Of a DNA stretch of 64,000 bases, positions 6,449-56,776 are shown piece by piece. Position 1 is the first letter of the stretch; each line of letters opens with the position of its first letter. This DNA comes from a virus. The stretch is taken from the IMG/VR virus record IMGVR_UViG_3300014039_000016, positions 72,829-136,828 of that record; one strand, written 5' to 3'. The notes below the pieces were generated by a model, which did no database searches, was not told the origin of the DNA, and worked only from the letters and a program-made list of their open reading frames with translations. The translations under genes were made by a program, and so were the position numbers.

Positions 6449-7570
6449 CTAATATAGATTTATTCTTTTCTTAAATAATTCCATAAAAACATCTGGACCT
6501 TTATCAATAGGACTATCTTTATAATCTAAATAATCCCATTTATCAAATATAAAACTAATTTTAACTAAATTACCATATTTATGATAAATATTAGTTAAAT
6601 TTCTAGTTAATTTTATAAACTCATCATCACCCTTTTTTTGGAACTGCTTATCCAAACAAATAATAATTTCTTTAACTCCTAGATTAATAAGAATCCAAGC
6701 TTGATATTGAATAAAAGCACTTCCGCAAACTGCAACTGAGATATCATTATCTTTACCAAAATAACTTGCATATAGGAGAGGTGACTTCTCCCCTTCAAAA
6801 ACAAAAACTTTTTCCGCAGCTCTTATATTATCTTTACTATTGTTTATATTATATAAATTAAATGAAAGTGGATGATTATATAAAACGCCATTTATTTTTG
6901 CGGGTCTATATTTTCCAAAGATTTCATTTTCTTTTATTAATGTTCTTTCTCGTATTCCTATTAGTCTATTGTCAATATCTCTATGCGGAATCACAATACT
7001 CGTATTAATTGGATTATATCGAATACCCGCATTTATCATTACTTCTTCTGTAATTCCTTCTTTTATCCAGGGCATTATAATAGGTTGAGGTAAATTTTTT
7101 AAAATATCATCTTTATATTGTTTCAATTTCACAATTTGAGTATTAATATTAATATCTTTAACTCTATCATAATTATTTAATATTTTCCAATCTTCGTGTG
7201 ACTGATAGTTACTATCATAAACATTTTGATTAGGAGAAAAACCAAAATATTGAGCAACATAATCAATAGCTTCCGGAAGCTGCCATTGAGAATCTTCTTT
7301 TTCTAAATGTGGTTCTTCTCTTGATTTTACTTTTCTTACTAACTCATAAATGTCAAAAGTCTCTCCACAATCTGTATAACATCTAAATAATTTAGTATTA
7401 TCATAATAGTATAATTTTTTACTATTTCCATTATGACAAATAGTTCGACATTTTAGTAAACTACCTTCTCGAATTGGTTCTCCGCCCATTTCATTAACTA
7501 AAGATTCAATTTGCTCAATAGTCAAACTGTTTTTTATTTCATCTTTATTATAACTATATAATTCTGGCAT
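6449..7570 (-). CDS. DNA primase (DnaG-like zinc-binding domain plus TOPRIM)
   Basis: CHNGNS...CYTDCGE zinc-finger motif and an FVFEGEKSPL TOPRIM glutamate region. Confidence 0.65.
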   Translation of the reverse strand: MPELYSYNKDEIKNSLTIEQIESLVNEMGGEPIREGSLLKCRTICHNGNSKKLYYYDNTKLFRCYTDCGETFDIYELVRKVKSREEPHLEKEDSQWQLPEAIDYVAQYFGFSPNQNVYDSNYQSHEDWKILNNYDRVKDININTQIVKLKQYKDDILKNLPQPIIMPWIKEGITEEVMINAGIRYNPINTSIVIPHRDIDNRLIGIRERTLIKENEIFGKYRPAKINGVLYNHPLSFNLYNINNSKDNIRAAEKVFVFEGEKSPLLYASYFGKDNDISVAVCGSAFIQYQAWILINLGVKEIIICLDKQFQKKGDDEFIKLTRNLTNIYHKYGNLVKISFIFDKWDYLDYKDSPIDKGPDVFMELFKKRINLY

Positions 7571-7572
7571 AT

Positions 7573-7842
7573 TTAAAATTCACTCTCGTCTAAAATCTTA
7601 ATTTTTAAATTTTCTATATCTTGTAACTCATAACTATAATCTGTAACAAACATAGGTTCAATGCGGCAAGTGCCTTTATCGGATTTACACCACATAAGAA
7701 TATTTTTCCATCTACCGCGTCTATTTTTATAAACAGATATCTTGGTATCTGGGACATCAAAATCTCCGCGTTTAATTACTGATTCTAGAGCTTCAATATC
7801 TTCTTTTGATGCTTGTAACATAATCATACCTACATCAATTTT
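7573..7842 (-). CDS. replicative DNA helicase (DnaB-like), exon 2 (C-terminal part)
   Basis: DVGMIML (the DADLIMF equivalent) and VYKNRRGRW (the KQRNGP equivalent), in frame with exon 1 if splicing joins 9028 to 7842. The boundary is inferred, not proven. Confidence 0.55.
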   Translation of the reverse strand, partial: KIDVGMIMLQASKEDIEALESVIKRGDFDVPDTKISVYKNRRGRWKNILMWCKSDKGTCRIEPMFVTDYSYELQDIENLKIKILDESEF

Positions 7843-8100
7843 CCTTTTTACCTTTATTTTCATAAAGGAGTAGACTATATCTTTACCATGGCTTTCGCTT
7901 TAGGTCCCTGTACTTCCATTTTAAAATAAATAAAATGTACTTCGCGCAACCGAATAGTCGTTGAACCTTCCTCTATTCGAGGCTCGGCTGCTGATTGCCC
8001 AATCTTTCTAATTTTCAAACATTCACACTTGATTTTATTTCATATCTATGTTGTAGTTTAGAAAGCTCTAAGGGTTTTCCAGCAATTCTCAGGGTGATAA

Positions 8101-8949
8101 TCACTTAGCATTTCTACTAAGGACGACTGTTTCCAAATTTTTATAAATTAAATATTTTCTTTCTAAATGAACTAATGGACAACTATCATATAATTTTTTC
8201 ATTATAAAGTATGGTTTTTGTATACCTCCACATCGAATGTAAAAAGTATTATTTTGAACATTGTTTTTTTGTTCTAATGGATTATCCAATTTTAATACTT
8301 CTTTTATCCATTCAAGAGTTTCTTTAGTTCCAACAAAACTTATACCAAATTCATTATTATTTCCTAAAAAAATAGAACCATCTCCATCAAAGTAACCTAA
8401 AATATAAGGTAGAAAAAATTCTTTTTCTATTTTTGGTGGCTCTAAAATTAAACTTTTTCTTGGAACAATTCCTTTATTTATTAAATCAGAAACCATTTCA
8501 TTACTATTAAAAATAATTTTACTCATAGGAGTGTTATTTGAAAAGCCTTCATTTTGAATATGGTCAACAATTTTTACATCACTATTCATAAATTCTTTAA
8601 GCTTTTCTAAATGTTTTTTATCTTTTCTGCTAATATTTACACCACAAAAATTTCCTGCATTGCAATCTGTTCTTCTTTGATACACATATCCATCTGCAGC
8701 AATAAACCCTAGCCAATAAGCCTTTTCTTCGGTATCAATATTTTGAAATTTTCGATAATCAGCTTTATATTTATGATTATCGTTTCTATAAGTTATTTGA
8801 TTTTCTTTTAACACTCTTGAAATTACATTTTTTGAAACTTGATATTTGGCTCCAATATTAACCATACTTTGTTTTTGATTTATATATAAATTAATAATGT
8901 TCTTCTGTTGTTCATCTGTAAAATTAATTTTTCTCATAAATACCTCCAA
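8101..8949 (-). CDS. LAGLIDADG homing endonuclease (double-motif), intron-encoded
   Basis: YWLGFIAADGYV and ILGYFDGDGSI motifs with an N-terminal HTH. Confidence 0.85.
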   Translation of the reverse strand: MEVFMRKINFTDEQQKNIINLYINQKQSMVNIGAKYQVSKNVISRVLKENQITYRNDNHKYKADYRKFQNIDTEEKAYWLGFIAADGYVYQRRTDCNAGNFCGVNISRKDKKHLEKLKEFMNSDVKIVDHIQNEGFSNNTPMSKIIFNSNEMVSDLINKGIVPRKSLILEPPKIEKEFFLPYILGYFDGDGSIFLGNNNEFGISFVGTKETLEWIKEVLKLDNPLEQKNNVQNNTFYIRCGGIQKPYFIMKKLYDSCPLVHLERKYLIYKNLETVVLSRNAK

Positions 8950-8954
8950 TTAGA

Positions 8955-8970
8955 TGTGTGTGTGTGTGTG
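8955..8970. repeat. (TG)8 dinucleotide microsatellite inside the helicase intron, in the loop of an inverted repeat
   Basis: tgtgtgtgtgtgtgtg, flanked by ATTAGATGT (8949-8957) and ACATCTAAT (8981-8989). Confidence 0.8.
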
Positions 8971-9027
8971 TATTATTCCTACATCTAATATGAAAAATAT
9001 TTAAGCTATATTATAAAAATTTGTCCA

Positions 9028-10293
9028 ATCTGCAATAGATTTTGCTCCACGCAATAAGTTTTGGTCATATTCTTTTGCATCTCGATAATCTCCATTAAGC
9101 TGTGTTGCGGACATAATAAAAATACCATACTGATTACATAAATCCTTTAATCTAATTGAAATCATAAAAAGAATATTATCTTCTCTTAAGCGCACTCCAC
9201 CGCTTCTTTTTGTTATCTCTTCAAGTATCTTCATCGAGGTATGTAGATAATCTAAAAAGCAGTACTTCGCCTCATGCTCCCTAATATTTCTTTTAATTGT
9301 ATTTTCTATATCTTGTAAAGAAAAGTCTGGAAGATATTCAAAATAAATTTTACTTTGTTTTAAAAGCTGTGCTGCTTTTTGAACTCTTTCCCATTCTCCT
9401 TTTAAATACTTACCATCTAATAAATGTTCTTCATTAACTCCTGATAAAAAAGCAATCATCATAGTCTGAATTTCATCAAGAGGTTGTTCTGTAGCTATAT
9501 ATATAGTAGGTTCTGATTTTCCTGTACTAATCCATTTATTCTCATGTAAATCATACATTTGAGAGCATCCGATATAGCAAGCATCCGCAATCATAGAACG
9601 AGTTTTACCAACTCCTGTTGCGGCAGACCTTAAATAAAATTTCTTTAATCTTGCTCCTCTTACAACCGTATTTACATATTTTCCAAAAAGAGGATATCCT
9701 AACTCCGGATTGGCTTTTAATGATTCTAGAAGTTCACTGACGCCCTCTCCTACCTGAATTCCGCCATCTGCATCGTCATCAACATACTTCATTCTAATTT
9801 GTAAAATTTTGTCATCTATAATATTTGCAATCTGTTCGAGGGATGTATTATCTAGCCAATCCTCTTGCTTTTGTTTCTTTTTTATATCTAAGACATTATC
9901 TGGGTCATACAAATCGGTTAAATCCATACCAGTAATAGTATTAAGTTGTTTTAATAATGTCATTTTCTTCATTCTATTATAATAATAATCAAAAGTTGAT
10001 ATATTAGATTTTTCCGCGCAAGTAAGGATATATTTTGCACCATCATTAGCTTTATAAATTGCTAATTTTTTTGGTCTTTGATTCAAATAATCTTCAATAG
10101 TTTCTATTGTTATATTTTTTGCTCCTAATTGATGTAAATTATAAATACTTCCAAAAACAATTTTTTGAAAATCATTTGCAAAATCTTCTTCTAAAAAGAA
10201 ATATTTATCTGTCGCATCTAATAAATTAGGATTATTATATATATTTCCTATAACTTGTACTAAACAAGCTATGTCACAATAATTACTTTTCAT
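9028..10293 (-). CDS. replicative DNA helicase (DnaB-like), exon 1
   Basis: RecA-fold motifs GVGKTRSMIADACYIG (Walker A) and ...SATQLNGDYRDAK. As drawn in the track, the ORF reads through into the intron to a stop at 9001. Confidence 0.7.
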
Positions 10294-10303: not shown

Positions 10304-10843
10304 TTAATCATCTAAGTTAAACAATTTAGGTTTAGCTTTTTTTATCTCAGGAATTTTTATCGTTACCTCTTTGATTTTTTCTTTATATATTGAGAAATCT
10401 TTATTATTATTCACTTGAGTAGTAATAAAAATATTGTAATAATAATTTTTTGCATCTTCATACACAAAAGGAATAATACCAACTCCTTTTCGTTCTTTAT
10501 CTATTGGATTACCTTTTATTTCGTGAAAATAAATTAACGATTTTAACATTCCACTATAACTATATTTATTATTCTCTTTATATTCTTTAATTTGCTTCAT
10601 AACGAGCGCCCAATTTGCTTTTCCTTTATAAAGAGCATTTATATAGTCTTTTAATATTTTTAAATCTCGGTCTTCTTGAGTTTCTTCTTTTTTAGCTTTT
10701 TGTGATTCCATTTCAACAAAATTAGTATTTTCCGGGTCACACGCGGCATGCGCATATCTTCTCATTCCATACCTAACAGCCTGAATTTTGTTAGTATCAA
10801 AAATCTCTCCGCATATTGGACATTTTACTTCATGTTTCGCCAT
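10304..10843 (-). CDS. hypothetical protein with N-terminal zinc ribbon
   Basis: CPICGE...HAAC pattern. The position next to the helicase suggests a replication accessory role. Confidence 0.35.
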   Translation of the reverse strand: MAKHEVKCPICGEIFDTNKIQAVRYGMRRYAHAACDPENTNFVEMESQKAKKEETQEDRDLKILKDYINALYKGKANWALVMKQIKEYKENNKYSYSGMLKSLIYFHEIKGNPIDKERKGVGIIPFVYEDAKNYYYNIFITTQVNNNKDFSIYKEKIKEVTIKIPEIKKAKPKLFNLDD

Positions 10844-11234
10844 AAATTATCACCTTCCCATGCTTACCAATTTTTTTCATATAATCTATCATATCTTTAG
10901 TTCCTTTTGAAGCACCATCCCAAAAGGCTAATAAATAATCTGCATAATCTCCCATTATATGATTCCTAATTATGCCTGCGGATTTGCCATACTTTTCCCA
11001 ATTAGGATAAAAATATTTTAAAGAATAACCAAATTCTTTTGCATATCTTTCTCCTAATTTATCTGCGCCTCTTGCACCTCCGCAGACTATTTCTTCTATA
11101 TCGTCTATTTTTATTTCTTTTAATGTCTTACATAATAAATCATAATCTTGAAAAGACCTTGTTCCAGCAATTATTAATTTCATTATTTTATACACCTCTA
11201 TAAATATTATACTATATTTTTTGTATAAAATCAA
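10830..11234 (-). CDS. SLOG/DprA-like Rossmann-fold protein (DUF2493-like)
   Basis: IIAGTRSF...CGGARGADKLGERYAKE...AFWDG pattern. Confidence 0.45.
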   Translation of the reverse strand: MILYKKYSIIFIEVYKIMKLIIAGTRSFQDYDLLCKTLKEIKIDDIEEIVCGGARGADKLGERYAKEFGYSLKYFYPNWEKYGKSAGIIRNHIMGDYADYLLAFWDGASKGTKDMIDYMKKIGKHGKVIIYGET

Positions 11235-11275
11235 ATAAAGGAGTATTTATAATAAATACTCCTTTATCATTAAGA

Positions 11276-12313
11276 TTACATTTCTTTATATTTTACGAGG
11301 TCTTTTAAATCTGTAACAATAAGGTCGATTGCTTCAACTTGGTCTCTTGTTGCATCTTTAATTTTCTTTCCTTTTCCAAGATATCTCTCAATACATTGAG
11401 TAATTCTTGGTTGCCAATATTCAGCAAAAGTTTTTCCTTCTTCTGTCTCCTGCTTAATATCTGCAGAACCTGGAATATTAATAATGATATCATTAAACTC
11501 TTTCATTAACTTATCAAAATCAAGTTCCATAGAAGTATCTAAGTGAACATTCTCTCTCTTGTCAGTAAATAAATCACTACCATCTTCTGCCATCTGCTTA
11601 TCAATAGCATCTCCGATTGCCTTAACTAAATTATCATAACTTAATTCTATGTAATCTGGAGTATACTTGAAACGAGAACCAGCTTCGTATCTTGAAGTTC
11701 CTCTAAGAAACATTAAGACTTTTTCATTTCCTGCTTCATCAGTTACTGAACGAGTATATCCAATAAGGTCACACATTCTTGCAATAACATTGTTTGCTCT
11801 TTTATCAAGAGTTGGAACAATTTTATTAAACTGATTTCCGCCTTCATCAGTGAATGTTTTATCTGTTTCATGTGATATAATAACTAATCCATATCCCATC
11901 TGTACAATCTTTCTTAAACATTCATCAAATTCTTTTTCAATAAGTCCATAACCTTTACCAAAAGGAATATCTGATACCGTGTCTGCATTATTATTTGCAC
12001 AAATATATTTTGTACAATAATCATATGCTATATCTCCAGTATCAATAATAATTGTTTCAAACATTTCTTTAGCTTTATCGTCCTTTAACTGTCTAAGAAC
12101 TTGTTTGAATTCTGACCATGAGTTAATTGGCTGTGCCATTGCTCCTGGAATTGCAGAATATCCCTTTTCAAAAGCTAAAAGAAAGTGCTTTGGGAACTTT
12201 ACTGCGGTAGTTGTTTTACCAGTCTTCCATCCGCCATACATAAATACGCTATATCCTCTCATGTCTCTACTAACTTGATGGGGCTGTACGCTAAAAATAT
12301 CTATCCCTGCCAT
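11276..12313 (-). CDS. AAA_24/Sak4-like phage ATPase (RecA-fold recombination protein)
   Basis: Walker A GGWKTGKTT and a downstream IIIDT motif. Confidence 0.6.
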   Translation of the reverse strand: MAGIDIFSVQPHQVSRDMRGYSVFMYGGWKTGKTTTAVKFPKHFLLAFEKGYSAIPGAMAQPINSWSEFKQVLRQLKDDKAKEMFETIIIDTGDIAYDYCTKYICANNNADTVSDIPFGKGYGLIEKEFDECLRKIVQMGYGLVIISHETDKTFTDEGGNQFNKIVPTLDKRANNVIARMCDLIGYTRSVTDEAGNEKVLMFLRGTSRYEAGSRFKYTPDYIELSYDNLVKAIGDAIDKQMAEDGSDLFTDKRENVHLDTSMELDFDKLMKEFNDIIINIPGSADIKQETEEGKTFAEYWQPRITQCIERYLGKGKKIKDATRDQVEAIDLIVTDLKDLVKYKEM

Positions 12314-25606: not shown

Positions 25607-26029
25607 TTATAAATTTTCTGCAATTTTTGCAATTTTACTTCTATAAATATTTTTAAGAGTAACTTCACTATAAAAATTTTGTCCTCTAAATACTTTAGAA
25701 ACTCTGCGGAGACCATTATGCTCACCCGCATACATATCTAAATCAACTTGGGCATTATCATCTCCATCAAGAATTACTTGACAATCATCACCAACTCTTT
25801 GAAGAGCAAGTTTCATTAAGTCTGAATCCATATTTTGTGCTTCTGTGATATAAATAATAGAATTAGAACCTGAAGTATCATATCCTCTAATATCAGCTAA
25901 AGGTAAAAGAATAAGCTGTTCATGCAATATCATATCATTTACAGTATCCTCTCCAAGTTTTGCCTTTAGAAAGTTTCCGATTTGGCTATCTAAAAGCTTC
26001 TCCGTCCTAGTTCCAGGGTAAACAAATAA
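25607..26029 (-). CDS. PhoH-like ATPase, exon 2 (C-terminal part)
   Basis: YPGTRTEKL (the LPGDLKEK equivalent), ITEAQN (the LDEAQN equivalent) and VILDGDDNAQVDL (the VVTGDxTQIDL equivalent). The start boundary near 26029 follows a G on the intron side. Inferred. Confidence 0.6.
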   Translation of the reverse strand, partial: LFVYPGTRTEKLLDSQIGNFLKAKLGEDTVNDMILHEQLILLPLADIRGYDTSGSNSIIYITEAQNMDSDLMKLALQRVGDDCQVILDGDDNAQVDLDMYAGEHNGLRRVSKVFRGQNFYSEVTLKNIYRSKIAKIAENL

Positions 26030-27340
26030 CTTTATAATTTTCATTATAAACCTGACTATATCTTATTTTAAACTATTTTTTAAAGAACAATATTTATTAT
26101 ATTTTCTTTGTAAATGTCTTGGACAATTTTCATATAAAATATTTAAAATTTTTAAAACTTGTAATCGACCTCTCCATTGAGTGTGCCAAGCAGATGTAAA
26201 AAAATTTTTATTTGTTTTTTCATTATCTGCTAAAAGATTGATTAAGGTTTGGAAATCTTGAACCTCTGTTTCATGATACGCAGTATAGCTTAAAGTAACA
26301 TCAGTACTAAAATCTTTACTGTAGCTCAATCCTCCATCCCCATCGAATAGACCTAATGCATAAGCACCCCAATATTTTTTAGGAATCTTTTGATATGGAA
26401 TATGGTCTATCATATAAGTTTTATTAGGAATAATATTATATTTTGCTAAATCATTATAGATTTGTTCATCAGTAAATTCTACAGAGCAACAAGTACTATT
26501 TGGTCGAATATCATAAATAATTTTTCCGTCTAACGCTAAATCTTCTTGAAATTTTTCTAAAATTTCTTTATCTCTTTCTTGTAATTGTAACCTAATTCTA
26601 CCTGTAGTTCTATAATGGTCAACGCTTCCATCTGTGAATAAAAAACCTAGCCAATAAGCTTTTTCTGGTGAATCAATGACTGAAAAGTAATCGCTTTTAA
26701 TTCTACGATTAATTCGATTAGTATTTTTAATTTGTAAGCCAAGTTCTTTCAGGCGGTGCTTAGTTGTTTCTTCATCTAAGTTACAATAATTAGCAACCTC
26801 TTTCAAGAAAGCACCTTCATCAATCATTTTTTTAACTTCCATAATTTGCTCATTAGTTAATTGTTTTTTCTTTCTACCTCCTCTAATAGGAATTTGATTT
26901 TCTTCAAGCAACTTTGTAATTTGCCTTCTATTAAAAGAGGGATAATCTCTTAATAATTGAGCTATTGATTTACCTTGTTGGTATTCTTGTATAATATTTT
27001 TTGTTTCCATAAAGAAACCTCCTTGTAATATTTTTACTATTCATATAAATATTAAAAATAAAAGAGGTAACTTTTCCTGTTTTGTCCAAAATTTTTCAGT
27101 TTAAAATCCATGCACTTCGAGATATTAAAATCCCTACTCTACTAACTTCCATATAAAAAATATGTGTTTTCGATAGTCGATGAACCTTCCTCTATTCGAG
27201 GCTCGGCTGCTGATTGTCCAATCTTTCTAATTTTTAAACATTCACACTTAGTCGTATTTCATACTTATGTTGTAGTTTAGAAAGCTCTAAGGAGGTTCCA
27301 GCAGTTCACATGGTTTTACTTGAGCCTTACCCTATTTTTA
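26030..27340 (-). mobile_element. group I intron (putative) in the PhoH-like gene, carrying a LAGLIDADG homing-endonuclease ORF
   Basis: PhoH is split between its Walker A region and its LPGD...DEAQN region. Segment 27170-27300 is near-identical to 7960-8095 of the helicase intron. Boundaries are approximate. Confidence 0.55.
26063..27010 (-). CDS. LAGLIDADG homing endonuclease (double-motif), intron-encoded
   Basis: YWLGFLFTDGSV and ALGLFDGDGGL motifs. Confidence 0.85.
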   Translation of the reverse strand: METKNIIQEYQQGKSIAQLLRDYPSFNRRQITKLLEENQIPIRGGRKKKQLTNEQIMEVKKMIDEGAFLKEVANYCNLDEETTKHRLKELGLQIKNTNRINRRIKSDYFSVIDSPEKAYWLGFLFTDGSVDHYRTTGRIRLQLQERDKEILEKFQEDLALDGKIIYDIRPNSTCCSVEFTDEQIYNDLAKYNIIPNKTYMIDHIPYQKIPKKYWGAYALGLFDGDGGLSYSKDFSTDVTLSYTAYHETEVQDFQTLINLLADNEKTNKNFFTSAWHTQWRGRLQVLKILNILYENCPRHLQRKYNKYCSLKNSLK

Positions 27341-28208
27341 ACCCAAGCTTAGCCGCGCCTCTAGCTGCGACTGTATTACAAAAAATAATGATTTTTTCTT
27401 TTTTGCCAGTTTCTAATTGATTCATCATATAAGCGAAAGCAAGGTAAGATTTTCCACTTCCCGCAGGACCTCTTAAGACAATCATCTGGTCATGAACTAA
27501 AGAGTCTAATGCAAGTAGCTGATATGCGTCATTATTGTAAGGACTTATCTTACCAAAGAATTTAGAGTCAATCTTAGGATATATAACTTTTTTATAACCT
27601 TCTTCTGTCCATTTATATTTATCAACAATACAGCTATTATTAACTACAATCAAATATTCATTAGTTAATAGACCATATTTATTATTTTTAGAATTAACTT
27701 CACAAGAATAGAAATTTGCTAATTCTTCATCATCTAAGTTTATAATTTTATAGCCAGTATAATCATCTTCTTCAACATCTGGACTGACTGTACTTAAACC
27801 TGCGGCTACCGCAAGCATTTTGCATGCAACATCTCTTGTTATAAATAAAGTTTCATCATTTTCTTTTTGTAAACTAAGAGCTGCATTAATAATATCACTA
27901 TCATTATTTGTGGCATTTGCTCCAGTTTTAATAACTTTATATTGGCTACTTTTGTTATCTAATAAATGAAGTAATTTTCTAGCTTTATATTTAATTTCAT
28001 TATCTTTTGATGCAGAGGTTTTTATATTTTCTAATTCCACGAGTGTAACATCCGCGATATAGAAAAAATCTTCAAAAGCTTTTTCTTGTAGTTCTAATAA
28101 AGCACAAGTATCATAAAATTTATTCATCTTCGTCCTCCTCATATTCTTCCAAATCTTGAGAAGCTTGGAACCCAATAGCAACGCCATTTCCTCCACAATC
28201 TTCTTCAA
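27340..28208 (-). CDS. PhoH-like ATPase, exon 1 (PIN-like N-terminal region plus Walker A)
   Basis: VLRGPAGSGKSYLAFAYMMNQL matches the PhoH P-loop. As drawn in the track, the ORF ends at 27327 inside the intron. Confidence 0.6.
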
Positions 28209-28417
28209 TATCTTTTTTTACATTATATGTTTCTTTTGCAATTACAGTACATATATGTTGACTTAGCTGTTGTAAAATTGTAATTACGCAATCTACGATT
28301 GGAATAATCAAAAGAACAAACAGACTTCCTTTTATAAAATTTTTCATTAGAGAAGCCCTCCTGGTTTATTTTATATATAATATGAAAAAAGAAATAGAAA
28401 AATTATACATTTTTGAC

Positions 28418-28449
28418 CAAATAAAAGAAAGGTGCGGCATTGCCGCACC
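28418..28449 (-). terminator. rho-independent terminator after the RNA-ligase-like gene
   Basis: GGTGCGGCA/TGCCGCACC stem followed by TTTCTTTTATTT. Confidence 0.65.
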
Positions 28450-28452
28450 TAT

Positions 28453-45661: not shown

Positions 45662-45717
45662 ACTCTTTTCTCTCCTTATTTATCTTATATTTTTAAGAAA
45701 GGCTATTATCATAGCCG

Positions 45718-45799
45718 AAAGACGCGAGTGGGAATCGAACCCACCACCCGAAGGTTTCAACGGAGTTGCAGTCCGCGTCAATACCACTCTGACACCGCG
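45718..45799 (-). tRNA. tRNA-Cys(GCA)-like with an atypical 15-nt variable arm
   Basis: Acceptor stem GACGCGG/TCGCGTC, T-arm GTGGG-TTCGATT-CCCAC and anticodon loop CTGCAAC. No encoded CCA. Confidence 0.6.
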
Positions 45800-45802
45800 T
45801 CA

Positions 45803-46147
45803 TTATACCACATATATATATGTTAATGTAAATTTAAACTTACTAAATGGAATATATAGTGCTTCAATATCAAAAACATCATTATTTTTATCTTGTACTT
45901 CTGTTTCAAAAACACCATTTTTATTATTTATATAGATACTTCCTTTTGTTCCATTTGCCTTTTTATAAAAAAATGGATATCCTAATCCCTTAGGTTCTAC
46001 TTCTATACCAAATTTTACCATATTTGTTACTGGAATTTCTACATATTCTACTGTTTCAGCAGCTCTATTAGGAAAATTAATATTTTCACTATAACTAGGA
46101 GTTTGTGAAACAATATTAGCATCTGTTATTTGCATAACTTTAAACAT
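45803..46147 (-). CDS. hypothetical protein
   Basis: ORF between two tRNA-like genes. Confidence 0.35.
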   Translation of the reverse strand: MFKVMQITDANIVSQTPSYSENINFPNRAAETVEYVEIPVTNMVKFGIEVEPKGLGYPFFYKKANGTKGSIYINNKNGVFETEVQDKNNDVFDIEALYIPFSKFKFTLTYIYVV

Positions 46148-46176
46148 TAATTACCACCTTTTCTTATTTGCTTTAA

Positions 46177-46260
46177 CTACGGCAGTGGGACTCGAACCCA
46201 CACGCCACAATGGCACAGGAATCAAAATCCTGCATGTCTATCCATTTTCATCATGCCGCA
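46177..46260 (-). tRNA. tRNA-Gln(UUG)-like with a long 14-nt variable arm
   Basis: Acceptor TGCGGCA/TGCCGTA, anticodon arm CAGGA-TTTTGAT-TCCTG, variable hairpin GCCATTGTGGC and T-arm GTGGG-TTCGAGT-CCCAC. Confidence 0.55.
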
Positions 46261-47028
46261 TTATATTTTATTCCATTCTTCTTCAGAATAAGAATTAATA
46301 TCTTTTTTTCGACTTGGAAGATTTTCTGATATACACCATTTAGTGATAGCTTTATCAGAAACACCATATTGTTCTCCTATCTTTGTAAATGGAGTAGTTC
46401 TAATAAGTTTTTTCAATTCTTCTCTTGATGGTCTTTTACATACTCTCTTTAATTTTGAAGAACATTCAAAACATAATCCAGAATTAGAATTTTTAGATAT
46501 TTCTTTATTACATTCTTTACAATAATACTTTATTTTTTTAGTATTATCAGAAATAATCCCCTTAGAAGAGATATGATTTCTATTTAATTTATTCTTTCCA
46601 TTTGTAGTATCTAACTGCTGATTGCAATTAGGACAAACCCAACGAAGATTTTCTAATCTATCATCATGGTTACAGCCATTTATATGGTCAAGAATTAAAG
46701 TTAATTCTTTTCCTTGCCATATAGGTTCTTGTCCGCAAATAGAACAAACATATGGAGTATATTCTCCTTTAACATACCATCTTCTTAAAGTTGCTTGACT
46801 AGCTGTTGAATCTTTAATAAAGATATTTCCCTCATTTCTCTCTATTCCTTTTTTAATAGCAAAATGAGAAATATCTATATTATATTTTTCTAATCTTGAT
46901 TTTACTGTGTTATTATTACTACCACTATGAGTAGCATATCCAAGTTTATCAATTACTTCTTTCATAGAAGAACTTGACTCTACTATTTGTTGAAGTTCTT
47001 CTTTTGAAAAATTATCAATTATTGCCAT
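46261..47028 (-). CDS. HNH homing endonuclease with C-terminal HTH module (paralogue family)
   Basis: CSICGQEPIWQGKELTLILDHINGCNHDDRLENLRWVCPNCN. The C-terminal 55 aa are shared with the ORFs at 58041 and 59549. Confidence 0.8.
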   Translation of the reverse strand: MAIIDNFSKEELQQIVESSSSMKEVIDKLGYATHSGSNNNTVKSRLEKYNIDISHFAIKKGIERNEGNIFIKDSTASQATLRRWYVKGEYTPYVCSICGQEPIWQGKELTLILDHINGCNHDDRLENLRWVCPNCNQQLDTTNGKNKLNRNHISSKGIISDNTKKIKYYCKECNKEISKNSNSGLCFECSSKLKRVCKRPSREELKKLIRTTPFTKIGEQYGVSDKAITKWCISENLPSRKKDINSYSEEEWNKI

Positions 47029-47151
47029 TTTTATTCTCCTTCATCTTTTGATATAATATATCAAAAATCCGAAGTACGAATTTTAGAACTTCGACCAAAT
47101 TTAAAAAAATTTTTTCTTTGTGCCTTACCGCTTGGCGATACCCCAAAGAAA

Positions 47152-47223
47152 TGTAAACCGAGAGACTCGAACTCTCATCTTCTGAACCACAATCAGAGGT
47201 CCTAGCCCTTGAACGAGGCTTAC
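47152..47223 (-). tRNA. tRNA-His(GUG). No encoded G-1 and discriminator A73.
   Basis: Acceptor GTAAGCC/GGTTTAC, anticodon loop TTGTGGT and T-arm GAGAG-TTCGAGT-CTCTC. The base 5' of G1 is U. Confidence 0.8.
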
Positions 47224-47225
47224 AA

Positions 47226-47299
47226 TTGGGCGTGAGGGATTCGGACCCTCGGTCTCTCCGTCCCAAGCGGAGCGCGATACCAAACTTCGCTAACGCCCA
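47226..47299 (-). tRNA. tRNA-Pro(UGG)
   Basis: Acceptor TGGGCGT/ACGCCCA, anticodon loop CTTGGGA and T-arm GAGGG-TCCGAAT-CCCTC. Sits 2 nt from tRNA-His. Confidence 0.75.
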
Positions 47300-47383
47300 A
47301 AATAACAAGACATTTTTCTGCTGTTCTATCTATTTGAAAGAAAGTAATTATTTGCTGTAAATGTCTTTCTTTATTATATAAAT

Positions 47384-47412
47384 ATTATATCATAAAATTT
47401 TATAAAAATCAA
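47384..47412 (-). promoter_or_regulatory. sigma-70-type promoter driving the tRNA-Pro/His unit
   Basis: TTGATT-17-TgaTATAAT. Confidence 0.6.
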
Positions 47413-48296
47413 TTAAAGATACTCATATGTCCGCATAATGTACATTCACCTATGCGGCAATCCTGTGGGCATTCACTAACACGATAATTTTTTATTGGTA
47501 TCATGTTATGACAAGGAATAGCTATGTTCTTTTCAATATAAACATAATCATTATCTCGTGAGCATCTCATTCCTTTTGTATTGATAGCAATGCCATCTCT
47601 ACCAAACTGTTTTAAGACTTCATTACGAGTTGGATAAGTTTTTTCAGTACCGTCATCAAAGATTACTAAATATCTATCTCCAACTTTATAATTTCTAATT
47701 TTGTCTCCGCGTTTAGAAGTATCTAATAAGTCTTCTTCGCACATATAGTGACAGTTAATTTCTTCACATTTTTTTATAAAATCTTCAACCTGTTCATTTC
47801 CATTAGTAATAACTGTTTCACATTTAAAATTGTTACCTAAAGCTTCATTTAATACTTTAGCTTTCTCCATGAAAGTATCTAAATCCGCATATTCATAATG
47901 AAAACTTGCAGTCATTGAGAGAACTTTATTATGAGATGTAGCAACTTCATTAAGTACTAAAAAGTATTCCGCAGGCTTTGAAAGATTAGTTGTAATATTA
48001 ATCTTAGCAATAGGATAACTTTCATATAACTTATCTAATAAAATTCTTAAATCTTTAAATAAAGAAATCTCTCCACCAATTAAGTCTATCTTAACTTTTT
48101 TCTTATTTATCGTATAAAGTTCTTCCGCAATTCTAATAATATCATCTGCCGCGTCTAAACAAGTTGCAAAATCATAAATGAGATTACTTTCAGTTTGAAT
48201 AAAATCTCTACGAATACAATAGCTACAATGATAATTGCAAATATCTGTTAAACGCCATTTTATAACACACATTGTATCTAAATCAACAATCTTCAT
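47409..48296 (-). CDS. radical SAM enzyme with C-terminal Cys-rich (SPASM/twitch-like) region
   Basis: CNYHCSYC (Cx3Cx2C) near the N-terminus and C-terminal CPQDCRIGECTLCGH. Confidence 0.7.
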   Translation of the reverse strand: MKIVDLDTMCVIKWRLTDICNYHCSYCIRRDFIQTESNLIYDFATCLDAADDIIRIAEELYTINKKKVKIDLIGGEISLFKDLRILLDKLYESYPIAKINITTNLSKPAEYFLVLNEVATSHNKVLSMTASFHYEYADLDTFMEKAKVLNEALGNNFKCETVITNGNEQVEDFIKKCEEINCHYMCEEDLLDTSKRGDKIRNYKVGDRYLVIFDDGTEKTYPTRNEVLKQFGRDGIAINTKGMRCSRDNDYVYIEKNIAIPCHNMIPIKNYRVSECPQDCRIGECTLCGHMSIFN

Positions 48297-48326
48297 TAAT
48301 ATTTCCCTTTCATCTTTTCTATAATA

Positions 48327-48356
48327 ATTATATCATAAAATTTTTAAAAAAGCAAA
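48327..48356 (-). promoter_or_regulatory. sigma-70-type promoter (weak -35) upstream of the radical SAM gene
   Basis: attatatcata with a TTGCT-like -35. Confidence 0.4.
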
Positions 48357-48361
48357 ATATT

Positions 48362-50737
48362 TTATCTAAAGATAATCTCAACAACAGAATCAGAATTTTC
48401 TTTAATTACTCTATACGCATTTGCGGCAGTTCTCTCACATGCAGTAGCTATTCCATTAGCACCAACTGTAACATAACCATTAACCCGAGCTGTACCGTCA
48501 TGACGAACTGGTAAAACACCCAACATACCGACAGCCGCCCATTCTGGTCTATCAAATCTTGACTTGTACTCTTGTGAACTATCATAATTAGGATTTAAAA
48601 CAAATCTAGTTCCTTCGTATTCGCCTTCAACAACTTGATTTTCATATTTTTTAGTTTCTTTATTCTTAACTTGAATTATCTTTGGAGCTGGTTCTTCTTT
48701 TAATCTGCGGAATTCGTCTCTAAGATACATACCATTCCAAACATCGCAATCTCCATTACCTAAAACAAAAGGTGCGCCAGAGATAACACCTAAAATATAA
48801 TCATCATCAGCTTCCGCTATTTTAATTTTATCTCCATCAAGAGTTACAAAATAACCAACTCTATCTTCTGCATTAGGATTCTCATCAAGCCATTCAAAAA
48901 ATTCAGCATAATCCGCAGTTGTAGAAGCGGTAATTGTATTTGCAGCTTTTGTTATACCAGAGAATTGAACAGAAAAAGCATTTGACCTTGCACTCTCACT
49001 AGCTCCATTACCTATTGCAAGTGCAGTGCCAACTTTGTTAGATGATGTACCACCTGTAGTCATTGCGGCATTAAAATGTCCCATTGCATAAGAACACCAA
49101 TTAGATGCTTTTGTAGAATCACCACTAGCATGAGAGTAATAACCTTCAGCTATAGTAAAACTCCCTTCTGAAAAAGAAGCATATCCTGAAGCTGTTGAGC
49201 TATCACCTATTGCAAAAGAAGAGGCTCCAGACGCTTTTGATTCAATGCCTCCTGCAAAACTACTCTGTCCGGAAGCTATTGTTGAACAGCCAGAGGCAAA
49301 AGCTGTTATTCCAGAAGCTACTGTACTACAACCTTGTGCATGTGACCTTATACCAGATGCTTCTGTATAAACACCTTCAGCATGTGAATAATGTCCTGAT
49401 GCAGTGTTACCACCACCTTCACAATGCGAAGCTGCGCCTGAAGCAGTTGAAAGTGTATAATTCTTATTAAAACTAACAGCAATCCAAATTTTTTCAAGAT
49501 TCTTATTTAAAAGAGATTTTATAATACTTTCATCTGTAAAATTAGGATTTCCAAAATACATTGCTGGTTTATTAATTACACTTGAAATTGTAACTTGTTT
49601 TACTTGAGAGGAAGTAAAACTATAAAATTCATCTACTGTAAGTGGATTATCAAATAAATGAACTACATCTTCGCCATTATCTATACCTGCTTGAATAGCA
49701 TCCGGTAAATAAGATAAAGCTGATGAATTATTTGTATAATACATATAATATTTTACATCTGTTAATCCAGTTGTAGTTTTTACAGTATTTAATTGGCTTG
49801 CAGGTATTTCTTTTATTGTAATATCAACTTCTGTATAATAATCACTACCTTGACCCATATATCCAACAGCATAAGTACCTTCAACATGTGCGCCTACGCC
49901 TGTAGCTTTTCCGCCAAGACCTTCAGAATAGGAACCACGTCTTGTTGCAAAAGTACCACAACCAGAGGCATGAGATATACTACCAGAAGCTGTTACATAT
50001 TTACCTTCTGCATGAGATGCGTAACCTGAAGCTGTAGTATAGATTCCTTCAGCAGTTGCGTATTGTCCTACTATAGAATCTTTTATTGCTCCAGCTGTTA
50101 CTCTTCCAGTAGGTTTTTCATATGCTGCTTTAATTGCACCAGTTAAACTACCGTCTCCAATAGTAGAAATATCAGATTTTCCTAATGTTGTTTGTATTGT
50201 ATCATTACCAAAAGTAATATCATTATCGTCAGTTCCAGTTGTCTTTATTGTAATATCTCCCGCAGCATAAGATTCAATAGTATCTTTTGAGTCAAGTACA
50301 AAACTATCTCCTGCATTTAAAGTTAAAGTACTTCCTGCAGAAATCGTACAATCGTTATTGTCTGCATTAATATCTACTGCATCTGAATCACTAATACTAA
50401 TTACAGAAGTATTTTTTACTTTTAAATCAATACCCATTGTCGAATTAAGAGTTGTAGTAATATCTCCTTCTTCATTGGTAACATTAAGTCCCTTTTTTAT
50501 ATCTTGTAAATACATTTTATCTTCAGTACTTAATAAACCGGCTTTTGATGTTGTAGCTTCTTCATATGTAGTATCAGTAAACTTCGCAGTGCTTGGAACA
50601 TCTATATTAACAGTATGATTATTAACTTTTATTGCATTATCTGCGGCAGCCGCAGATGCAACTTTAGCCTTGCTAATATACTCTTTTAACTTGGCAGTAT
50701 ATTTAGTTAAGCCAGTTTTAGTTAAATATTTACCCAT
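48362..50737 (-). CDS. repeat-rich fibre/tail-fibre-like structural protein
   Basis: Many degenerate Y-x-ASG-x-SHAEG / TASGxxSHA repeats over about 400 aa and a C-terminal beta-rich domain. Confidence 0.45.
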   Translation of the reverse strand: MGKYLTKTGLTKYTAKLKEYISKAKVASAAAADNAIKVNNHTVNIDVPSTAKFTDTTYEEATTSKAGLLSTEDKMYLQDIKKGLNVTNEEGDITTTLNSTMGIDLKVKNTSVISISDSDAVDINADNNDCTISAGSTLTLNAGDSFVLDSKDTIESYAAGDITIKTTGTDDNDITFGNDTIQTTLGKSDISTIGDGSLTGAIKAAYEKPTGRVTAGAIKDSIVGQYATAEGIYTTASGYASHAEGKYVTASGSISHASGCGTFATRRGSYSEGLGGKATGVGAHVEGTYAVGYMGQGSDYYTEVDITIKEIPASQLNTVKTTTGLTDVKYYMYYTNNSSALSYLPDAIQAGIDNGEDVVHLFDNPLTVDEFYSFTSSQVKQVTISSVINKPAMYFGNPNFTDESIIKSLLNKNLEKIWIAVSFNKNYTLSTASGAASHCEGGGNTASGHYSHAEGVYTEASGIRSHAQGCSTVASGITAFASGCSTIASGQSSFAGGIESKASGASSFAIGDSSTASGYASFSEGSFTIAEGYYSHASGDSTKASNWCSYAMGHFNAAMTTGGTSSNKVGTALAIGNGASESARSNAFSVQFSGITKAANTITASTTADYAEFFEWLDENPNAEDRVGYFVTLDGDKIKIAEADDDYILGVISGAPFVLGNGDCDVWNGMYLRDEFRRLKEEPAPKIIQVKNKETKKYENQVVEGEYEGTRFVLNPNYDSSQEYKSRFDRPEWAAVGMLGVLPVRHDGTARVNGYVTVGANGIATACERTAANAYRVIKENSDSVVEIIFR

Positions 50738-50752
50738 TTTATTCTCCTTTCT

Positions 50753-50790
50753 AAATAAATAAAAAAAGAACGAGAATTACTTCTCGTTCT
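50753..50790 (-). terminator. rho-independent terminator overlapping the GT2 stop codon
   Basis: AGAACGAGAA/TTCTCGTTCT stem followed by TTTTTTTATTT. Confidence 0.55.
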
Positions 50791-51970
50791 TTTCATCTAC
50801 TGTATAAACATAACCTTCATCACCTAATACACCGGATTTCTTATCTAAATCAATAACCCATTTAGGTAATTTTTCTCTAAGTGCATCAAATTCTTCTTTT
50901 CCGCCATAAGGTTCTGTTTTTACTTTATTCATAAATTCAAAAAATGTAATTTCTGGAATTATGTTTATCATATCCTGAGCCATTCCCGCGTATTGAGCGG
51001 TATACATAGTTTTTAAAATCTCTTCATCAATCTGATTTTCAATTTCTTTATAACAACTATGATAGAATCTTTTTGCATTAAAGAGATTCTGTTCTGCAAA
51101 CATTGGTTTTTCATTTAAACACTTAATATAACTGAAGTAATGGGAAACCATCTGCTCGACTGTAAATCGAGTAATCCCTCCATTGAAAGGATTTTTCTTT
51201 TTACAGAACTTAATTGCATTAATTGCCGCAGCAGTTGAACCAACAAGACATAAATCCCAGTTATATAATGGAATTCCGCCATTCTCTTCCATACCTATTC
51301 TTGTAATAGAATGTTCTGAACCAGTTCTCCAAAGATAGATAGGGTCTTCAATACGATTTATCATTAATGGAGAGCCTTCTATACTCATGCGAATCTCCCA
51401 GTTGAACTGTCCGTCTTCCATAGCTCGCAGCTCAGAGAACTTAATTCCAGCTTCTCTGAGGAATGAAACTCGGTATAAGCGCCCAAAGACCCACGGGTGA
51501 GTAACATCATTGCGCGGCATCATTCTCGGAGGCACGCCCTGCCCCATTTGAATTAATTGTTGCTTTTCCGCGGCGCTCATTTTACCTTGTTCTATCTCTT
51601 GGAAGAATGGACCTTGTACTTCAATACAATTTGGAGTTGTATTATCTAATAAACTTTCAATAGAGAATGGTGAAATAAAAATATCATCAGCATCTATAAA
51701 AGTTATCCATTCTGCAGTGCATGCCTCTAGCGCTCTTTGTCTTGCAATACCAGGACCCGCATTTTTATCACAATTTACTGTAATAATTTCTAAATCTGGA
51801 TATAATGTTTTTAAGAAATCATATTTCCCATTATCCGCGGGGTCATCATTAGCAATAATAACCTGACATCTATTCTTATAACTCTGTATTTGAATAGATG
51901 CCAAAGTATCCTTTATTGTTTCTATTGCATGAAAAGCAGGAATTCCAATAGCTACATCTTTCTTACTCAT
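50777..51970 (-). CDS. family 2 glycosyltransferase
   Basis: GT-A fold: GIPAFHAIETIKDTLASIQIQSY...IANDD and DxD FIDADD. Confidence 0.8.
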   Translation of the reverse strand: MSKKDVAIGIPAFHAIETIKDTLASIQIQSYKNRCQVIIANDDPADNGKYDFLKTLYPDLEIITVNCDKNAGPGIARQRALEACTAEWITFIDADDIFISPFSIESLLDNTTPNCIEVQGPFFQEIEQGKMSAAEKQQLIQMGQGVPPRMMPRNDVTHPWVFGRLYRVSFLREAGIKFSELRAMEDGQFNWEIRMSIEGSPLMINRIEDPIYLWRTGSEHSITRIGMEENGGIPLYNWDLCLVGSTAAAINAIKFCKKKNPFNGGITRFTVEQMVSHYFSYIKCLNEKPMFAEQNLFNAKRFYHSCYKEIENQIDEEILKTMYTAQYAGMAQDMINIIPEITFFEFMNKVKTEPYGGKEEFDALREKLPKWVIDLDKKSGVLGDEGYVYTVDEKNEK

Positions 51971-52022
51971 TGCAATAATCTCCTTTTATCTCTTTTATTT
52001 AATTATATCATATTTTTTAGAA

Positions 52023-53228
52023 TTACGCAAACATTGCTGCAATCTCATCCTCTGTGATAGGAGTAAGCTCTTCCGCAGTTTCATCAACTACAATAGTGAT
52101 TGTGGTATCATCAATCTTACCCTCAATCTTAGCCGCAGCTATCTCTGATTCTGTTCCCATAAATACACGAGAATCGATATATGCTTTAACTGTTGATGCT
52201 TTTGCATTAACTTTATAATCTGTTCCAAGAACAGAAGTTAAGAATGCTTCATCAATAGCAACTTCCGCATAAGTAGGTGTTGCACTATCACTTGAAGCTA
52301 CTGTGCAAATATATAACTTATTTCCGCTTAAATATACTTCACCAACTTTAGCTGTTGTTGGAAGTGTCTCAATAGTTCCTTTAAATACAAGAGCGTCACC
52401 AGTTGCAGCAATACTATCTAATACTTCTTGTGATAACATAGCTTTTGTGATTGCCGTGTTATCAATAGTTGCAGAAATCTTATTATTAGAACCAACAACT
52501 ACTTTAACAACGCCATTGTCAGTACCTTCATAAACATCAACTAAATCTTTAACATAGATATAGATTTTTTGATTATCAGCAGTTCCATCTTGAGCATTAA
52601 TAACTAATTCAATATACTTACCAAGTTTTTCATCTGTTACACCATCTGGTAATGCAGAAATATTTTCACCATCTTGATAATATAATTCGCCAATCTTGGT
52701 AAATTCAGTTACCTTACCTGATTTAACTAAAAAATCTTTAGGAATATCAATTTTACCAATTTCTGCGCCATTCTGTGTAAAAGTATATGTCTTTAAAGCA
52801 CCTTCTGTTGTAGTGCTAGTTGCAATAGATACTGTTGCATGTTCTTTAATCAAATTCTTAATAGAGCCTTCAACACTATCTTCACCTTCAAGTTTAGCAA
52901 TTTCTTTTTGTAAATTATCAATATCTGTAGTGATAGAAGTAATATCTACTGATACTTTATCTGTTTTATCTTCATTAAAGAATAAATCAATATAGACTTT
53001 ATCAATATCTTCTCTAAGTTCACCAGATTTTAATACTTTACTAAAAGGAATATTTATTTTAGATGCTGTTCCTGTAGGTAAACCTGAATCATTAACACCT
53101 TGATAAATTTCATAAGTTGCGGCATAGCCAGTTTCAGGTGTCTCTGCAGCTTTGATATAAACTTTATTATATTTTTTAATTGCCGCGTCATAAACTACAA
53201 GACCTTCTTTATCTAAATATTGCGCCAT
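52023..53228 (-). CDS. hypothetical structural protein
   Basis: Thr/Val/Ala-rich. Sits in the structural/lysis block. Confidence 0.35.
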   Translation of the reverse strand: MAQYLDKEGLVVYDAAIKKYNKVYIKAAETPETGYAATYEIYQGVNDSGLPTGTASKINIPFSKVLKSGELREDIDKVYIDLFFNEDKTDKVSVDITSITTDIDNLQKEIAKLEGEDSVEGSIKNLIKEHATVSIATSTTTEGALKTYTFTQNGAEIGKIDIPKDFLVKSGKVTEFTKIGELYYQDGENISALPDGVTDEKLGKYIELVINAQDGTADNQKIYIYVKDLVDVYEGTDNGVVKVVVGSNNKISATIDNTAITKAMLSQEVLDSIAATGDALVFKGTIETLPTTAKVGEVYLSGNKLYICTVASSDSATPTYAEVAIDEAFLTSVLGTDYKVNAKASTVKAYIDSRVFMGTESEIAAAKIEGKIDDTTITIVVDETAEELTPITEDEIAAMFA

Positions 53229-53246
53229 TAAAATTATCTCCTTTCA

Positions 53247-53750
53247 TTAATTAAATAATTCATCAATATCTTCTTTAGTGATTAAACTTTTGTTGATTAT
53301 ATTTTGAACAACTTCTGTATCTATATTCTCTTGAATATATTCTTTTGATATTAAATTCTTAATATAATCATCAGATATATGAATTTTTCCATTCTCTTCT
53401 ATTAAAATAGAATTATTATCAATTATAATTGCACCAAGTTTGTCTTCTGTTGCAATAGGAAGTATATTCGCTATTTCTTTTTTTAACTCATCTTTAGTAT
53501 AATAGTTATCTAAATTAAGTTCAGTACTTCCTATTAAAACCCAATTACTATCAACATACATATATTGATTGTAAGAAGTTTTTTCTGCGGAAGTTGGTAC
53601 AAAATAAATTGTTTTTTCTTTTATATCAACTGTTGGTAATGAATCAACGAATTGAATATCTAATGCACCCACTTTAGAAAAAAGGTAGTCTGCGTATTGC
53701 TTACTAGCTTTTTTAGCAAGCGCATAAGTGACAGCAGAAAATCCGCTCAT
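53247..53750 (-). CDS. hypothetical protein
   Basis: ORF with no confident motif. Confidence 0.35.
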   Translation of the reverse strand: MSGFSAVTYALAKKASKQYADYLFSKVGALDIQFVDSLPTVDIKEKTIYFVPTSAEKTSYNQYMYVDSNWVLIGSTELNLDNYYTKDELKKEIANILPIATEDKLGAIIIDNNSILIEENGKIHISDDYIKNLISKEYIQENIDTEVVQNIINKSLITKEDIDELFN

Positions 53751-53769
53751 TTTAGATTACCTCCTTTTA

Positions 53770-53958: not shown

Positions 53959-54032
53959 TAGAAATTCTCCTTTCTATTATTATTTCCTATTTATTTTTAA
54001 CTTTTATAAATTATAACTTTAACATTTTTGAC

Positions 54033-56774: not shown

Positions 56775-56776
56775 AA

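Follow-up and report, generated by a model that had tools for sequence, protein, structure and literature searches.

The DNA analysed here, referred to below as the window, is a stretch of 64,000 nucleotides (nt) from the IMG/VR virus record IMGVR_UViG_3300014039_000016; it is AT-rich (32% GC) and phage-like. In the window a gene for a DnaB-family helicase is split in two by an insert that has the features of a group I intron and carries a gene for a LAGLIDADG protein. All features of this locus lie on the minus strand. Helicase exon 1 (9028..10293, 422 codons) ends with ...GCA GAU, U9028 being the last exon base. It is followed by the predicted group I intron (7843..9027, 1185 nt), which begins with U9027 and ends with G7843, the omega-G, and then by exon 2 (7573..7842, 89 codons plus stop), which encodes KIDVGMIML...VYKNRRGRW.... 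The putative LAGLIDADG homing endonuclease gene lies within the intron at 8101..8937 (278 amino acids (aa) plus stop), with a Shine-Dalgarno sequence, GGAGG, at 8947-8943.

Exon 1 covers the DnaB N-terminal domain, the Walker A motif GVGKT and most of the RecA-like domain. The DnaB-like open reading frame (ORF) as it stands in the DNA (9001..10293) reads ...LLRGAKSIAD, continues through eight read-through codons (WTNFYNIA), and ends at an in-frame UAA (9001..9003) which terminates the unspliced translation of exon 1. An earlier reading by a model, made from the letters and without database searches (the sequence-only reading), had this ORF stop just after SIAD; its coordinates were right, but the stop does not fall there by chance, the eight extra codons being the start of the intron. 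The same WTNFYNIA tail is found after helicase exon 1 in P0003 and P0004. Downstream, a 96-aa ORF (7573..7863) holds ...KIDVGMIML...VYKNRRGRW. Joining 9028 to 7842, as had been proposed, is in frame and yields a 511-aa protein, and its continuity with the DnaB profile is borne out by a match to Pfam DnaB_C (PF03796, 5e-16) that runs in a single stretch over residues 208-472 (profile positions 10-244 of 255) and crosses the junction at residue 422/423. The N-terminal DnaB domain PF00772 scored 21 bits on the joined protein, slightly below the cut-off of 23. More than 6000 public proteins are homologous to the joined helicase, nearly all of them uninterrupted and about 511 aa long; the downstream ORF aligns with their C-termini and is therefore the missing end of the DnaB protein, as had been suspected. 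The best homologue, P0001, is 98% identical over 100% of the length.

Each of the 13 uninterrupted homologues that were aligned reads ...LLRGAKSIAD↓KID[VA]G..., with no residue gained or lost at the join. The junction is fixed independently, at the DNA level, by two human-gut metagenome contigs (L001 and L002) that carry P0001: they are 95% identical to the window and lack precisely 7843-9027, joining the window's 10400-9028 directly to 7842-7400 as GCTGAT↓AAAATT. The insert boundaries share no bases (no microhomology). Since the exons of L001 and L002 abut at this point without shared boundary bases, the insert is exactly 7843-9027. The helicase gene is thus interrupted by an exact 1185-nt insertion, which falls within the codons of the conserved motif ...RGAKSIAD↓KIDVGMIML. 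The empty-site sequence of L001, TCAATCGCTGAT↓AAAATTGATGTAGG, is a candidate target of the endonuclease; in other extents the L001-type site reads ...GCTGAT↓AAAATTGATGT... and ...AAATCAATCGCTGAT↓AAAATTGATGTAGGTATG..., and the predicted ligated exon junction of the window is TCTATTGCAGAT-AAAATTGATGTAGG (in RNA ...GCAGAU-AAAAUU...). These alleles also fix the base 5′ of the intron as U9028 and the final intron base as G7843, the two flanking bases that the sequence-only reading had singled out, and all intron copies end ...AAGG↓. G7851, the last base of the Infernal match described below, was rejected as an alternative 3′ splice site: it would add LKR, which is present in no homologue, and the empty-site DNA excludes it.

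A scan of 7500-9200 with Infernal gave a match to the Rfam group I intron family RF00028 at 7851-8129 (model positions 1-253) with 61.2 bits (gathering score 50; E 1.2e-14) and a good alignment from P3 to P9, which agrees with the group I-like nature first suggested from the letters. Scans of the whole 64-kb window against Rfam, in both gathering and E-value modes, detected neither this intron nor a second one, in a PIN-PhoH gene, that is described below; for the helicase intron this is a filter effect and not evidence of absence. The default filters of Rfam can miss an above-threshold group I intron when 64 kb are scanned at once, a technical trap, and whole-window RNA scans of AT-rich phage DNA can thus yield false negatives.

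In the predicted RNA the group I fold is complete, and it is both conserved and covarying. Its 5′ splice site lies within P1, where GAU↓UG (9026..9030) pairs with the internal guide sequence CAGUC (8125..8129) and U9028 stands opposite G8127 as the U-G wobble. The extension of this helix, P1a, is formed by CAAAUUUUUAUAA (9011..9023) and UUAUAAAAAUUUG (8134..8146), two 13-nt strands that are 100% complementary, lie 864 nt apart and make up the longest perfect inverted repeat in the intron. The endonuclease ORF fills the loop of this 13-bp extension, and the 3′ strand of P1a lies inside the end of the ORF; the place of the ORF within the P1 extension had been overlooked in the sequence-only reading. 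P1 was assigned from its position, the U-G pair, the ORF-less copies and the adjoining, covarying P1a; in the ORF-less copy L131 the 5′ end reads ↓UGGA, a hairpin CAAAGUAA...UUACUUUG, GAGA and CAGUC, so that there the P1 hairpin is local. The P2 hairpin, CUUAGUA-GAAA-UGCUAAG (8104..8121), is followed by the ribozyme core (7843..8103), which runs from J2/3 through P9 plus the tail and contains P3 (8094-8090 with 7910-7906), P4 (8084-8079 with 7994-7989), P5 (8074-8072 with 8000-7998), P5a (8065-8058 with 8011-8004), P5b (8051-8044 with 8033-8025), P6a (7982-7970), P7 (7959-7954 with 7878-7873), P7.1 (7953-7942), P7.2 (7937-7917), P8 (7905-7885) and P9 (7868-7851), and ends with the 3′ tail UAAAAAGG (7850-7843). 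The presence of P7.1 and P7.2 places the predicted ribozyme in subgroup IA. Two further candidates were rejected: a guide sequence upstream of the ORF (AUCU at about 8954, with AGAU) would put A, not G, opposite the splice-site U and is not conserved in the copy L123, and GUGAUUAUCAC, considered as a P2.1 hairpin, is not kept in other copies and was taken as J2/3.

The fold was scored on a gap-free alignment of helix strands (A3) from eight distinct copies, cut at invariant anchors; it replaced a plain MAFFT alignment of ORF-deleted copies (A2), in which P7.2, P3′ and P8 were misaligned. The scored structure comprised 75 pairs in 15 helices (P1, P1a, P2-P5, P5a, P5b, P6, P6a, P7, P7.1, P7.2, P8 and P9), with P3 and P7 treated as a pseudoknot. 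Standard pairs were formed in 99.5% of the 600 cells, against 33-43% when the partners were slid by 1-3 columns, and double changes were found in 35 of the 75 pairs, a count reached by none of 500 shuffles. P1, P4, P5 and P7 are invariant across the aligned copies (the P1 pairing is also kept in a copy from a Bacilli metagenome-assembled genome (MAG), L170), and P3, P5a, P5b, P6a, P7.1, P7.2 and P9 covary. The two strands of P3, about 185 nt apart, occur among the aligned copies in six compensated versions (CCCUG/CAGGG, CUCCG/CGGAG, UCUCG/CGAGA, GACCG/CGGUC, UCCCG/CGGGA and GAUCG/CGAUC), and L170 has an additional one, GACGG/CCGUC. Double changes were present at all six tested pairs of P7.1 plus P7.2 and at four of the six tested in P1a, and five of the seven P2 pairs show compensatory changes.

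The sequence-only reading had also noted that the 1185-nt insert encodes a double-motif LAGLIDADG protein, and both motifs are there, WLGFIAADG (D82) and LGYFDGDG (D184, D186). It had placed the gene at 8101-8949; the gene and its end at 8101 hold, but the start does not. The longest ORF (8949-8101, 282 aa) begins with TTG 8949, and the start is most likely ATG 8937, 5 nt past the GGAGG; the identical ORF in L003, which belongs to a 151-kb gut contig, is likewise given 278 aa by gene callers. The protein matches Pfam LAGLIDADG_3 (PF14528, 3e-9) and, across both motifs, PDB 2DCH (I-Tsp061I; E 3e-5). Metagenome protein sets contain more than 4000 homologues of it; of the best-scoring 120, nearly all are 270-280 aa long. 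The ratio of non-synonymous to synonymous substitution rates (dN/dS) is 0.27 for one pair, the window and L170, which points to purifying selection. The ORF encodes an intact double-domain LAGLIDADG protein under such selection, by its predicted fold a monomeric enzyme. Immediately 5′ of its Shine-Dalgarno sequence there is a hairpin, UUAGAUGU...ACAUCUAA (8950..8988), whose loop contains an (AC)8 run (8971-8956); the run is absent from other intron copies and the hairpin is not conserved.

The same site of the helicase gene is occupied by ten other copies in metagenomic contigs of phages and MAGs, nine in IMG/VR loci and one in a MAG. L123, found with the endonuclease protein, has a helicase 53% identical and an intron 75% identical in DNA; eight further IMG/VR copies were found through the J3/4-P4-P5 motif; and in the Bacilli MAG (L170) the intron occupies the same site of a helicase that is 59% identical. 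Two copies at this site, L131 (317 nt) and L129 (351 nt), are ORF-less, and L003 matches the window at every base of the intron (100% identity). The intron is therefore present or absent among near-identical phages, yet it is found at the same site in helicases that are only 53-59% identical. The endonuclease follows the same distribution. Two of its homologues (53-56% identity) lie between a DnaB exon 1 and a 78-82-aa exon 2 ORF, so that the ribozyme-endonuclease pair recurs in the phage lineage, and for all four family members examined in their genomic context (53-65% identity) the location is this helicase intron. The J3/4-P4-P5 motif occurs in 44 viral contigs (IMG/VR loci L124-L167), most of which have different upstream exons and ordinary local P1 hairpins; because the exons differ, this ribozyme subfamily has colonised several other phage genes. 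By its distribution, i.e., the polymorphism at a precise site together with the diverged hosts, the helicase intron appears to be mobile, which suggests homing. Empty, ORF-less, ORF-bearing and intron-plus-intein alleles (the intein is described below) agree with the gain and loss cycle of homing elements, and they provide a natural series for the study of that cycle.

Taken together, these observations make it highly probable that 7843-9027 is a mobile group I intron of the IA type in the DnaB-family helicase gene of an SPbeta-like gut phage. Several points weigh against this reading. Structure, conservation and distribution are the grounds on which we infer splicing, endonuclease activity and homing. 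P1 is short (5 bp) and invariant in the eight aligned copies, and thus it has no covariation support of its own. The helix strands of A3 were chosen with the structure in mind, which favours that structure, although the controls score far lower. No convincing P10 with exon 2 was found in the helicase intron: on inspection, the GGAAA 5′ of CAGUC is not complementary to the start of exon 2, AAAAUUGAU, with which there are only non-adjacent, AU-only matches. P10 is a common, though not universal, element of group I introns. Mismatches in the exon flanks, counted per 25 nt against L001, show no gradient from the junction of the kind that co-conversion would leave (one allele pair), and a search of JGI metagenomes for an empty site with exactly the window's flanks returned 0 hits.

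The second intron that had been suspected in the window is real. It interrupts a PIN-PhoH (YlaK-like) gene, also on the minus strand, whose exons lie at 28127-27341 and 26022-25607; the intron (26023..27340, 1318 nt) carries a LAGLIDADG ORF (27010-26063) in its P8 loop. The predicted splice sites are 27341/27340 and 26023/26022, and the spliced protein of 400 aa has its PhoH match in one stretch. Uninterrupted 400-aa homologues that are 95% identical read exactly RGAAKLG↓FYPGTRTEKL, straight across the junction, and therefore the insertion is exact; AKLG[FY]YPG is present in 120 of 120 PIN-PhoH homologues. This intron has a 7-bp P1 with the U-G pair, a contiguous 7-bp P10, no P2, and a 10-bp P8 that closes around the ORF. 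An Rfam scan of 26300-28800 did not detect it, because the ORF splits the core.

The sequence-only reading had described the segment 7960-8095 as nearly identical to part of this second intron. The strings that it quoted do occur exactly twice in the window (7963-7997/8049-8073 and 27182-27216/27268-27292; 0 expected by chance), but the shared block, in the P4-P7 core, extends over only 121 nt (8074-7954 versus 27293-27173) with 10 mismatches, about 92% identity, and the similarity falls off towards 8095. One explanation for this likeness would be a recent recombination or gene conversion between the two introns of the window, comparable to the domain shuffling of T4 introns. The exact shared runs of 35 and 25 nt, the identical sequence of the variable helices P5a and P6a in both introns, and the fact that the helicase intron is the closest relative of the second intron's block among the fetched loci would fit such an exchange. 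The identity of the block is, however, no higher than 92%; over the same block the helicase intron and its copies in other phages show 83-93% identity, and the intron of an unrelated contig (L157) is nearer to the helicase intron, at 96.7%. Few relatives of the second intron were sampled in this comparison. Since the identity of the block lies within the ordinary range of the subfamily, we assign the two introns to one subfamily; a recent exchange between them is unsupported beyond ordinary subfamily conservation, and we consider it rather unlikely.

A different role has to be weighed for the protein encoded in the helicase intron. It might act mainly as a maturase that helps to close the 864-nt loop of P1a, instead of or besides being a homing endonuclease. 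In the AlphaFold model (predicted local distance difference test score (pLDDT) 90.8, predicted template modelling score (pTM) 0.81), three helices form an N-terminal domain, after which come two alpha-beta-beta-alpha-beta-beta-alpha halves. A Foldseek search of the PDB with this model gave 83 matches at E<=0.001; all of the 50 listed are LAGLIDADG homing endonucleases, maturases or engineered derivatives, and the best folds are the bI3 maturase, I-Tsp061I, I-AniI and the I-OnuI family. A maturase role would be favoured by the presence of bI3 and of the bifunctional I-AniI among these matches, by the additional N-terminal domain, and by a P1 that must form across a very long loop. On the other hand, D82/G83 and D184-G187 are invariant in an alignment of 42 endonuclease sequences, so that both catalytic-position aspartates are kept; pure maturases such as bI3 tend to lose them. 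In addition, ORF-less copies of the intron persist, which argues that the ribozyme is not strictly dependent on the protein, and the presence or absence of the intron at a precise site fits active homing. A protein that is mainly a maturase is thus improbable, and a homing endonuclease remains the preferred assignment.

It is very hard to credit that the insert is a decayed, non-splicing relic, with the helicase left as a pseudogene or a truncated protein. No positive evidence was found for decay; it would draw on the short P1 and the missing P10, on the failure of default Rfam filters to report the intron, and on the indirect nature of the case for splicing. The core is intact and above the Rfam gathering score, all helices are kept by compensatory changes in diverged copies, and the endonuclease is under purifying selection. 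Moreover, this gene encodes the phage's only DnaB-type helicase, within a conserved replication module, and the same arrangement is found on several contigs of 110-151 kb. Least credible of all is a split helicase, made from two separately translated ORFs whose products would assemble with no splicing of the RNA: the in-frame ATG at 7863 in the ORF 7573..7863 would allow it, but this ATG is inside the P9 hairpin and has no Shine-Dalgarno sequence, the break is midway through a conserved motif, and a complete ribozyme with the correct U and omega-G flanks the break exactly.

Under the reading of a mobile IA intron, the following course of events is proposed. In the pre-mRNA the last three bases of the exon and the first two of the intron (GAU↓UG) would pair with CAGUC, about 900 nt downstream, and the 13-bp P1a would bring the splice site and the guide sequence together, looping out the whole endonuclease gene. 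An external guanosine would then attack after U9028, omega-G7843 would dock, and the exons would be ligated to ...GCAGAU-AAAAUU..., restoring the 511-aa helicase, while unspliced mRNA would give a helicase truncated after the eight extra codons. The endonuclease would be translated from its own Shine-Dalgarno sequence and ATG. In a mixed infection the enzyme is presumed to cut intron-less helicase alleles, and repair would copy the intron into them (homing).

The 5′ splice-site helix can form only once the loop of about 900 nt that bears the endonuclease gene has been transcribed. The last ~15 codons of the endonuclease (...LETVVLSRNAK) share their sequence with the 3′ strand of P1a, the guide sequence and P2, and ETVV is kept there in 87 of the 120 top homologues. 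Because of this overlap, translation of the endonuclease and folding of the 5′ splice-site helix are probably mutually exclusive on any one transcript. The overlap could couple endonuclease translation to splicing, which is the most interesting open point of the locus. As a doubtful though conceivable extension of this idea, a ribosome that finishes the endonuclease would melt P1, so that a transcript would give either endonuclease or spliced helicase mRNA, and this translational switch would set the ratio of enzyme to helicase; the LAGLIDADG protein might also clamp the helix.

The phage is SPbeta-like, roughly 140-150 kb in length, and from the human gut. By sequence, the helicase is assigned as a DnaB-family replicative helicase and as the orthologue of SPbeta YorI (annotated as a replicative DNA helicase; 37.5% identity over 97% of the length). 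Its neighbours encode YorF- and YorH-like proteins, AAA_24, a primase, DHH/RecJ and PolIII-alpha. The closest relatives at the genome level are MAGs of Clostridium, Lachnospiraceae and Bacilli, and no GenBank phage was matched by the locus in a megablast search. A scan of the locus for promoters and terminators was at chance level.

A second kind of selfish element was observed in this helicase family. In P0003, P0004, P0019 and P0106 an intein (Hom_end plus LAGLIDADG) is inserted in the Walker A motif, between GVGK and T; in L003 it spans about 1.06 kb (10691-11755), begins with Ala (ALPNS...) and ends ...VTHN. It presumably resembles the class 3 DnaB inteins of mycobacteriophages. The window has no intein, and the equivalent empty site is at about 9601-9603. 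The intein accompanies the intron in P0003 and P0004 and occurs without it in P0019 and P0106; the helicase gene has therefore been colonised independently by two kinds of selfish element. In L001 (6437-7473) and in L002, the adjoining primase is split into residues 1-262 and 261-373 by about 1 kb with a GIY-YIG ORF; an Rfam scan of the L001 insert found no ribozyme, and the primase gene of the window (6449-7570, minus strand) is continuous. Elsewhere in the window there are a c-di-GMP-I riboswitch aptamer (RF01051; 44045-44118, minus strand; 61.6 bits, gathering score 35) and, at ~45700-63600, a large tRNA gene array with about 21-22 members, each encoded on the minus strand.

The annotation of the locus can now be corrected: a "truncated" 430-aa helicase, a hypothetical protein and a 96-aa orphan become a 511-aa helicase and a mobile intron, and the same correction applies to the PIN-PhoH gene. 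The intron-endonuclease pair recurs in contigs of uncultured SPbeta-like phages from gut metagenomes. Group I introns that bear homing endonuclease genes in phage genes of DNA metabolism have been known since T4 and in many groups, and documented hosts include SPO1, SPbeta bnrdE/bnrdF (also with an intein), Twort-like phages, Bacillus prophages and gut crAss-like phages (PMC3984707, PMC2504315, PMC5618024, PMC4299906, PMC8270828, PMC7886860). In 277 GenBank phage records, which span many host genera, there are sequences 77-83% identical to the P4-P7 core, and most of these fall in gaps of the annotation. Like the phage IA introns of T4 td/nrdB/sunY, the SPO1 DNA polymerase gene, SPbeta, Twort-like staphylococcal phages and Bacillus prophages, the helicase intron has a ribozyme core of the self-splicing type with P7.1/P7.2 and interrupts, in frame, the conserved motif of a gene for DNA metabolism; a stop follows soon after the 5′ splice site, the endonuclease ORF is looped out of the core, the intron is present or absent among close relatives, and there are ORF-less derivatives. 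It differs from them in three respects. Its host gene encodes a DnaB-type (YorI-like) replicative helicase, and a search of the literature found no described group I intron in a phage helicase of the DnaB/YorI type. Its endonuclease is a LAGLIDADG protein, which is not the commonest type in phages, the introns of which most often carry GIY-YIG, HNH, PD-(D/E)xK or EDxHD enzymes (PMC3984707). Finally, its ORF is in the P1 extension, with an end that overlaps the guide sequence and P2.

The encoded protein shares two motifs and conserved acidic residues with monomeric LAGLIDADG enzymes and maturases (I-Tsp061I, I-AniI, the I-OnuI family and bI3), whose folds its predicted fold matches at Foldseek E 1e-9 to 1e-7, but it is only 10-20% identical to them in sequence and has an N-terminal three-helix, helix-turn-helix (HTH)-like domain at residues ~8-45. 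The second intron of the window belongs to the same ribozyme subfamily and carries the gene of another LAGLIDADG protein whose N-terminal region is HTH-like, whereas its host gene is PIN-PhoH, its ORF is in the P8 loop and not in P1a, it has no P2, and its P1 and P10 are of the textbook kind. The DnaB P-loop inteins of cyanobacteria and mycobacteriophages are likewise selfish elements that target this helicase, but they splice at the protein level and are absent from the window. The helicase intron is thus a well-formed and ordinary example of a long-known selfish element, from which it differs in detail; it leaves the general understanding of such elements unchanged, and with it the DnaB-type helicase joins the list of phage genes that group I introns have colonised.

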